From an uncultured Actinomycetota bacterium (GTDB lineage: Bacteria; Actinomycetota; Actinomycetes; Mycobacteriales; Pseudonocardiaceae), in contig CAVSTV010000006.1 of assembly GCA_963730945.1 (NCBI GenBank), forward strand, positions 25,612 to 89,611: a stretch of 64,000 nt of DNA, given 5' to 3'. Positions 4,945 to 5,484 of this stretch are shown piece after piece. Below the pieces are notes generated by a model. It ran no database searches, had not been told where the DNA came from, and was given only the letters and a program-made list of their open reading frames with translations. Both the position numbers and the translations under genes were made by a program. How positions within the stretch are numbered: position 1 is the stretch's first letter; every line of letters starts with the position of its first letter.

Positions 4945-5102
4945 TCAGGCGACGTCGAACCGATCCAGGTTCATGACCTCGTCCCACGCGGCCACGAAGT
5001 CGTGCACGAACTTCTCCCGGGCGTCGTCGCCGGCGTAGACCTCCGCGACGGCCCGCAGCTCGGAGTTCGAACGAAGACCAGGTCGACGCGGGTACCGGAC
5101 CA
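4945..5102 (-). pseudogene. katG: 3'-terminal remnant (~52 codons) of catalase-peroxidase
   Basis: Reads [10 protein letters not shown][G][41 protein letters not shown], the canonical KatG C-terminus, with one base missing at the Gly codon. Confidence 0.85.
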
Positions 5103-5447
5103 CGCGGTCAGGCAGGGTGTGCTGCCGATGGCGCAGTCGACGTCGGCGATGGCGCCGCAGGAGCGGCACACGAGGTCGTGGTGGTTGTCGCCGACCCGCG
5201 ACTCGTAGCGCGCCGAGGAGCCCGTCGGCTGGATGCGCCGCACCAGGCCCGTGGTGGTCAACGCGCGCAGCACGTCGTAGACGGCCTGGTGGGACACCTC
5301 GCCGAGATTCGCACGCACGACTCCGATGATCGAATCGGTGTTGGCGTGCGGGTGGTCGTGGACCGCGGACAGCACCGCCACCCGGGGGCGGGTCACCCGC
5401 AGGGTCACCCCGCGCAGCATGCGCTCGAAGTCCGAAGTCGTCGGCAC
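5103..5447 (-). pseudogene. furA: FurA-type Fur-family regulator, C-terminally truncated and fused to the katG remnant
   Basis: [48 protein letters not shown]; the final CxxC-containing segment is missing. Confidence 0.85.
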
Positions 5448-5464
5448 GGACGCAGTCCCGACCA

Positions 5465-5484
5465 TTTTCTGGAACCAATCAAGA
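5465..5484 (-). promoter_or_regulatory. Putative FurA operator
   Basis: Minus strand TCTTGATTGGTTCCAGAAAA, an AT-rich imperfect palindrome ~20 bp upstream of furA; resembles the TCTTGA-N4-TTCCAGAAAA site I recall from mycobacterial furA promoters. Confidence 0.55.

Follow-up and report, generated by a model that had tools for sequence, protein, structure and literature searches.

A likely non-functional remnant of a third furA-katG operon, attributed to an illegitimate ~2.2-kb deletion, in a Pseudonocardiales-type actinomycete

The window (the whole 64,000-nucleotide stretch of DNA analysed here) carries on its minus strand a furA gene that runs directly into the end of a katG gene, and we consider this locus very probably to be the non-functional remnant of a third furA-katG operon, born of an illegitimate deletion of ~2.2 kb. 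Comparison of sequences shows FurA codon 115 placed directly before, and in frame with, the 52 codons at the end of katG. The locus is damaged further by an apparent one-base loss in the katG tail, the change of a His to Asp in the NHHH motif and an A to G change in the −10 element. The loss of the operon would be tolerated because its paralogues are redundant, the genome retaining two katG genes that are intact and one monofunctional catalase. Translation from the conserved GTG that forms the furA start codon (5447..5445, minus strand) gives a product of 158 aa, in which 115 residues come from FurA, 10 from KatG and 33 from out-of-frame translation. The features of the locus, in the direction of transcription, are:

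5485..5465, minus strand: FurA-operator-like imperfect inverted repeat TTCTTGA-N5-TCCAGAA (box TTCTTGATTGGTTCCAGAAAA), retained
5482..5477, minus strand: furA −35 hexamer TTGATT, retained
5459..5454, minus strand: degenerate −10 element GGGACT, set 17 nt downstream of the −35 and separated from the GTG by 6 nt
5447..5103, minus strand: furA remnant, codons 1–115 of ~143–155, with the winged-helix DNA-binding domain, NHH(D) and the first CxxC (CRSC)
5177..5175, minus strand: GAC (Asp91), turning NHHH into NHHD through one substitution, CAC to GAC, at 5177
5103/5102, minus strand: deletion junction, furA ...CTGACCGCG followed by katG TGGTCCGGT...
5102..5073, minus strand: katG codons for 10 residues, in frame with furA
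5072..5071, minus strand: broken Gly codon, GT, where five relatives of the same genus, and also the katG of this genome on contig C12, have GGC/GGT
5070..4945, minus strand: final 41 katG codons and the native stop, out of frame with the furA start
4973..4971, minus strand: stop codon reached by the fused, shifted frame
4935..4903, minus strand: G+C-rich hairpin right after the katG stop, with a terminator-like stem of ~14 pairs, retained

The furA-katG join and the missing DNA

Reading of the minus strand reproduced the in-frame join of furA to katG at 5103/5102 that a preliminary description of this DNA had proposed, and the one-base loss that it placed further along was seen as the reduction of a GGC/GGT codon to GT; the frame switch, at 5070/5071, was also picked out by a codon-position frame detector written for this analysis. 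The katG tail extends over 52 codons in all (5102..4945, minus strand) and was correctly recognised as the last ~52 residues of KatG: it aligns to M. tuberculosis KatG, a protein of 740 residues, over residues 689–739 (E 5.6e-22; ~80% identity), and to positions 674–724 of 725 in NCBIfam NF011635, where it scores 81.8 bits against a cut-off of 981. No PF00141 match was found at the locus, and the remnant lacks the two peroxidase-fold domains, the length of ~720–740 residues and the N-terminal haem site that characterise a KatG catalase-peroxidase (TIGR00198 / NF011635). A catalase-peroxidase would, as judged from what is left of the gene, not be made here. In a public annotation of a near-identical contig, the 158-aa product is named a plain FUR protein, the label that had been foreseen for an ORF caller. 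The product is better annotated as a chimeric remnant and should carry a pseudogene flag in place of the Fur-regulator label.

The extent of the deletion was determined from five same-genus operons that are intact (L120–L124, from genomes G010, G022, G014, G006 and G019), in which the furA-side and katG-tail flanks lie 2,161–2,193 bp apart, in agreement with the earlier estimate of ~2 kb. The lost DNA comprises the last 28–40 furA codons, the furA-katG spacer and ~690 of the ~740 katG codons. Linkage of the two genes was found at 74 of the 80 nearest furA loci, where the frame directly after furA, at the place expected of katG, is open for 700 aa or more. The locus has the form of a deletion pseudogene, its flanks being contiguous here but far apart in relatives, and its frame disrupted.

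Homology to furA ends at ...CTGACCGCG(T), and that to katG begins again at (G)TGGACCGG. The microhomology that the preliminary description had proposed to look for at this point was assessed through the same-genus operons and amounts to 1–2 bases (G/GT) held in common by the parental sequences, the ancestral breakpoint having been deduced from orthologues that are only 83–86% identical. Neither a repeat nor a mobile element was found at the join. As only these 1–2 bases are shared, the deletion would be illegitimate rather than repeat-mediated, and a breakpoint resolved to 1–2 bases points to illegitimate recombination. Among 40 relatives there was no sister strain with conserved flanks, which match only at ~70% identity and to paralogues; in G021 (C566), where the neighbouring GGDEF-EAL gene has a homologue, furA-katG does not come after it.

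Reliability of the assembled sequence

The join could also be an artefact: the operon would be intact in the organism, and the collapse would stem from the assembler or from a deletion variant carried by a minority of a mixed metagenomic population. The genome (19 contigs, 6.24 Mb, 72% G+C, 93% completeness) looks metagenome-derived and possibly long-read, and the frame detector, which counts frameshift-like same-strand junctions, found 258 of these in it (~41 per Mb). Two near-finished genomes of the same genus, each sampled over 400 kb, gave 12.5 and 22.5 per Mb. Such an excess suggests extra pseudogenes or consensus indel errors, and so single-base frameshifts in this assembly need to be treated with caution. 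A join sharing only 1–2 bases, however, offers no repeat to mislead an assembler, and the missing 2.2 kb was found nowhere else in the assembly.

A second assembly contains the same locus. Contig_10297 of the ENA metagenome assembly ERZ25039586 (L148), which differs in length (333,835 vs. 274,190 bp), is 99.913% identical to positions 1–11447 of the window (11.4 kb) and is separated from it by 9 SNPs and one indel, at 2804. The indel speaks for an artefact. The contig is identical across the scar, one-base loss included, and encodes the exact same 158-aa product. The second copy argues against a one-off misjoin, with the limitation that the two assemblies may share reads. The independent point damage in the −10 element and in the NHHD motif likewise fits a locus that is no longer selected, and we regard an artefactual or minority join as very unlikely. 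The 2.2-kb deletion is robust to consensus indel errors; the one-base loss at 5072/5071 is not fully certain and could be such an error.

Next to the scar, a membrane-sensor GGDEF-EAL gene (window 2405–4827, minus strand) is frameshifted near 3633 (...LAVADPA / VALLFLDLDDF) in both assemblies. The extra indel of contig_10297 at 2804 falls inside the EAL domain of this gene.

The FurA fragment and its promoter

The FurA part of the scar matches Pfam FUR (E 2.5e-15) over profile positions 4–94 of 121, retains the winged-helix DNA-binding domain of the Fur family and is 83–89% identical to Pseudonocardiales FurA proteins, on which the placement of the organism as Pseudonocardiales-like rests. It covers positions 5–95 of 130 in the PerR profile, compared with 4–127 for the intact FurA encoded on contig C8. 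The C-terminal 28–40 residues are deleted, the second CxxC (CPxC) among them, and the fragment, with the first CxxC (CRSC) present, lacks the paired CxxC motifs and the complete C-terminal dimerisation domain of a FurA. The metal motif, NHHH before xVC, is also altered: the NHHD noticed in the preliminary description occurs in the scar copy alone, NHHH being present in 80/80 of the nearest FurA relatives. The His that aligns with Asp91 is one that we take to be a metal ligand in Fur-family structures. In S. coelicolor Nur (3eyy), Asp91 aligns with the His directly before LVC. The truncated FurA would have only one half of the structural zinc site and an incomplete dimerisation domain, and it presumably cannot work as a normal peroxide-sensing, zinc-stabilised dimeric repressor.

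Heavy decay of the fragment was considered and ruled out, as it deviates at 2 of 69 columns (those at least 95% conserved), within the range of intact relatives (0–4, mean ~1). Codon-position bias is still strong in both the furA and the katG pieces of the scar. Taken with the few deviations at conserved columns, this would indicate either that the deletion is evolutionarily recent or that the fragment is still somewhat constrained.

Upstream of the gene, the FurA operator was found to be retained, as had been proposed: the block CTTGAtTgaTTCCAGAAAA, which comprises the −35 and the inverted-repeat operator, is conserved across 85 upstream regions of relatives and occurs only once in the genome. 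The layout in these 85 regions is CTTGAtTgaTTCCAGAAAA, 17 nt, C-A-n-A-C-T, 6–7 nt and then an invariant GTG. The spacing from −10 to GTG would imply a leaderless furA transcript, and the furA-katG promoter of M. tuberculosis, M. smegmatis and other actinomycetes has the same leaderless geometry, with its −10 lying 6–7 nt before the GTG; the 5′ end of the M. tuberculosis furA transcript coincides with the initiation codon (PMC2358910). The second position of the −10 element is A in 83 of the 85 relatives and G in the scar (5458), and the promoter is probably weakened. As a furA-katG operon, the locus has kept the gene order, the operator and the −35, and has lost 2.2 kb and the near-invariant A of the −10. 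A generic sigma-70/terminator scan, too strict even for the promoters of intact relatives, returned no promoter and only an unrelated hairpin, and was set aside as evidence. The lineage-specific promoter stretch, sought as an exact pattern in JGI metagenome contigs, gave no hit.

Without the one-base loss, the locus would encode an in-frame 167-aa fusion of FurA to the KatG tail. It is conceivable that the deletion is real, that the one-base loss is a consensus error and that this fusion is expressed and modulates FurA-type operators, either as a monomer or in a dominant-negative way, given that furA and katG join in frame, the operator and −35 are kept, the FurA part has barely diverged at conserved columns and the assembly has a surplus of frameshift-like junctions. 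An in-frame join is, however, expected by chance one time in three, and the one-base loss is present in both assemblies at a site that is no long homopolymer (GG to G). The near-invariant −10 A is lost, the protein has an altered invariant His and no second CxxC to complete the structural zinc site, and among the 5.8 billion sequences searched the fusion architecture was found only in the window's own product. This reading appears highly improbable. The broader proposal, that a truncated FurA (the 167-aa fusion or the 158-aa product) might be expressed as a monomeric decoy or dominant-negative partner tuning the surviving FurA/KatG, is one to which we attach very little weight; if true, it would be a regulator born from a deletion scar.

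Remaining catalases and katG turnover in the genus

We return to the locus as a non-functional remnant. A whole-genome tblastn for KatG, a check that the preliminary description had put forward, returned C12, C8 and the scar only. The first full-length katG (C8:270283-272571) has its own furA ahead of it, 68% identical to the scar FurA, whilst the second (C12:48366-50633) has no furA; the encoded proteins score 1145.8 (C8) and 1184 bits (C12) against the NCBIfam cut-off of 981. An intact monofunctional catalase is encoded at C2:58251-59387. As two intact katG genes and this catalase remain, no change in peroxide tolerance would be expected, and a phenotype resulting from the scar is unlikely. 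The earlier expectation had been that H2O2 tolerance would be altered unless another katG existed; the loss of this copy stands, whilst an effect on tolerance would not be expected. In an environmental organism of the Pseudonocardiales type, the effect on isoniazid activation that had been envisaged alongside it is of no practical importance.

Two side observations concern these genes. The C12 katG (G000:C12:47001-52000, L010) comes after an open-reading frame whose C-terminal part resembles a LytTR DNA-binding domain and before PQQ-dependent dehydrogenase-like open-reading frames, both judged by eye, an unusual regulatory context for katG. At G000:C7:85172-85938 there is a weak second catalase-family match spread over two frames (54 and 21 bits), which may be a broken catalase gene.

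The genus varies in its katG content, with 0–5 copies per genome among 31 genomes, and independent fragments of katG other than the scar were found in three same-genus genomes:

L172, 4006-4230 (G023:C13): katG tail-end fragment with its own frameshift
L173, 3978-4237 (G003:C120): katG tail-end fragment of ~89 residues with its own frameshift
L174, 3990-4319 (G042:C10): katG N-terminal fragment

No FurA match was found in these three stretches. They resemble the scar in being brief stretches of katG that deletions left behind where other, intact katG copies exist in the genome, and differ from it in that the G003 and G042 fragments cover other parts of KatG and that the breakpoint in G023 is unlike that of the scar. 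A recurrent breakpoint was ruled out, as the G023 remnant begins ~30 residues earlier (~residue 700 vs. 732 in the scar) and has other neighbours.

The repeated occurrence of 3′ katG remnants, in G023 and G003 as well as here, would be explained if the katG tail were kept by selection, as a promoter, terminator or small open-reading frame serving a neighbouring gene, and the hairpin after the stop is indeed retained, with equivalent hairpins after katG in the intact operons L120–L124. The 5′ breakpoint in G023 is another one, however, the G003 remnant comprises ~89 residues vs. 52 in the scar, the G023 and G003 remnants each have a frameshift of their own, and G042 keeps a 5′ fragment instead. 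The hairpin at the scar has a fold energy of −29.5 kcal/mol but a z-score of only −1.47, and an Rfam scan of window positions 4600–6700 gave no meaningful match. Selection for the tail is to our mind an extremely remote prospect.

Read as the remnant of a deleted paralogue, the scar is real but ordinary, the decay of a spare gene with no pointer to new biology, in a group that routinely gains and loses paralogues of katG. The gene pair and its order are those of the actinomycete furA-katG operon, as in M. tuberculosis and M. smegmatis, whereas the scar retains only FurA 1–115 and the last 52 residues of KatG, is without the haem-binding domain and the second CxxC and has a damaged −10. Deletions of katG occur in isoniazid-resistant M. 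tuberculosis isolates. The katG of M. leprae is reported as a pseudogene in a passage of PMC8252540 that cites Eiglmeier 1997. In these cases, which are the nearest parallels, as in the scar, the catalase-peroxidase gene is lost through deletion or decay and furA-side sequence stays. The scar differs in that its deletion fuses furA directly to the katG tail and in that the lost copy had two paralogues beside it, in a free-living organism, so that no loss of catalase-peroxidase activity would be expected. It represents a clean example of the shedding of a redundant peroxide-defence paralogue in Pseudonocardiales-type actinomycetes, and its value lies in annotation and in the record of katG paralogue turnover.

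Elsewhere in the window, a dispersed intergenic repeat of ~150 bp lies at 6450–6601, between a hemerythrin-domain gene (5704–6426) and a LuxR-type gene. It is present in at least 45 copies of 85–95% identity on most contigs, has no Rfam match and could be a MITE-like or REP-like element. Beyond it, at 6605–9226 and ~9865–12418 on the minus strand, are two large regulators of the LuxR family, paralogues in tandem that both combine an AAA_16/STAND ATPase domain, TPR repeats and a GerE domain, which share ~71% DNA identity and have a third copy on C14.
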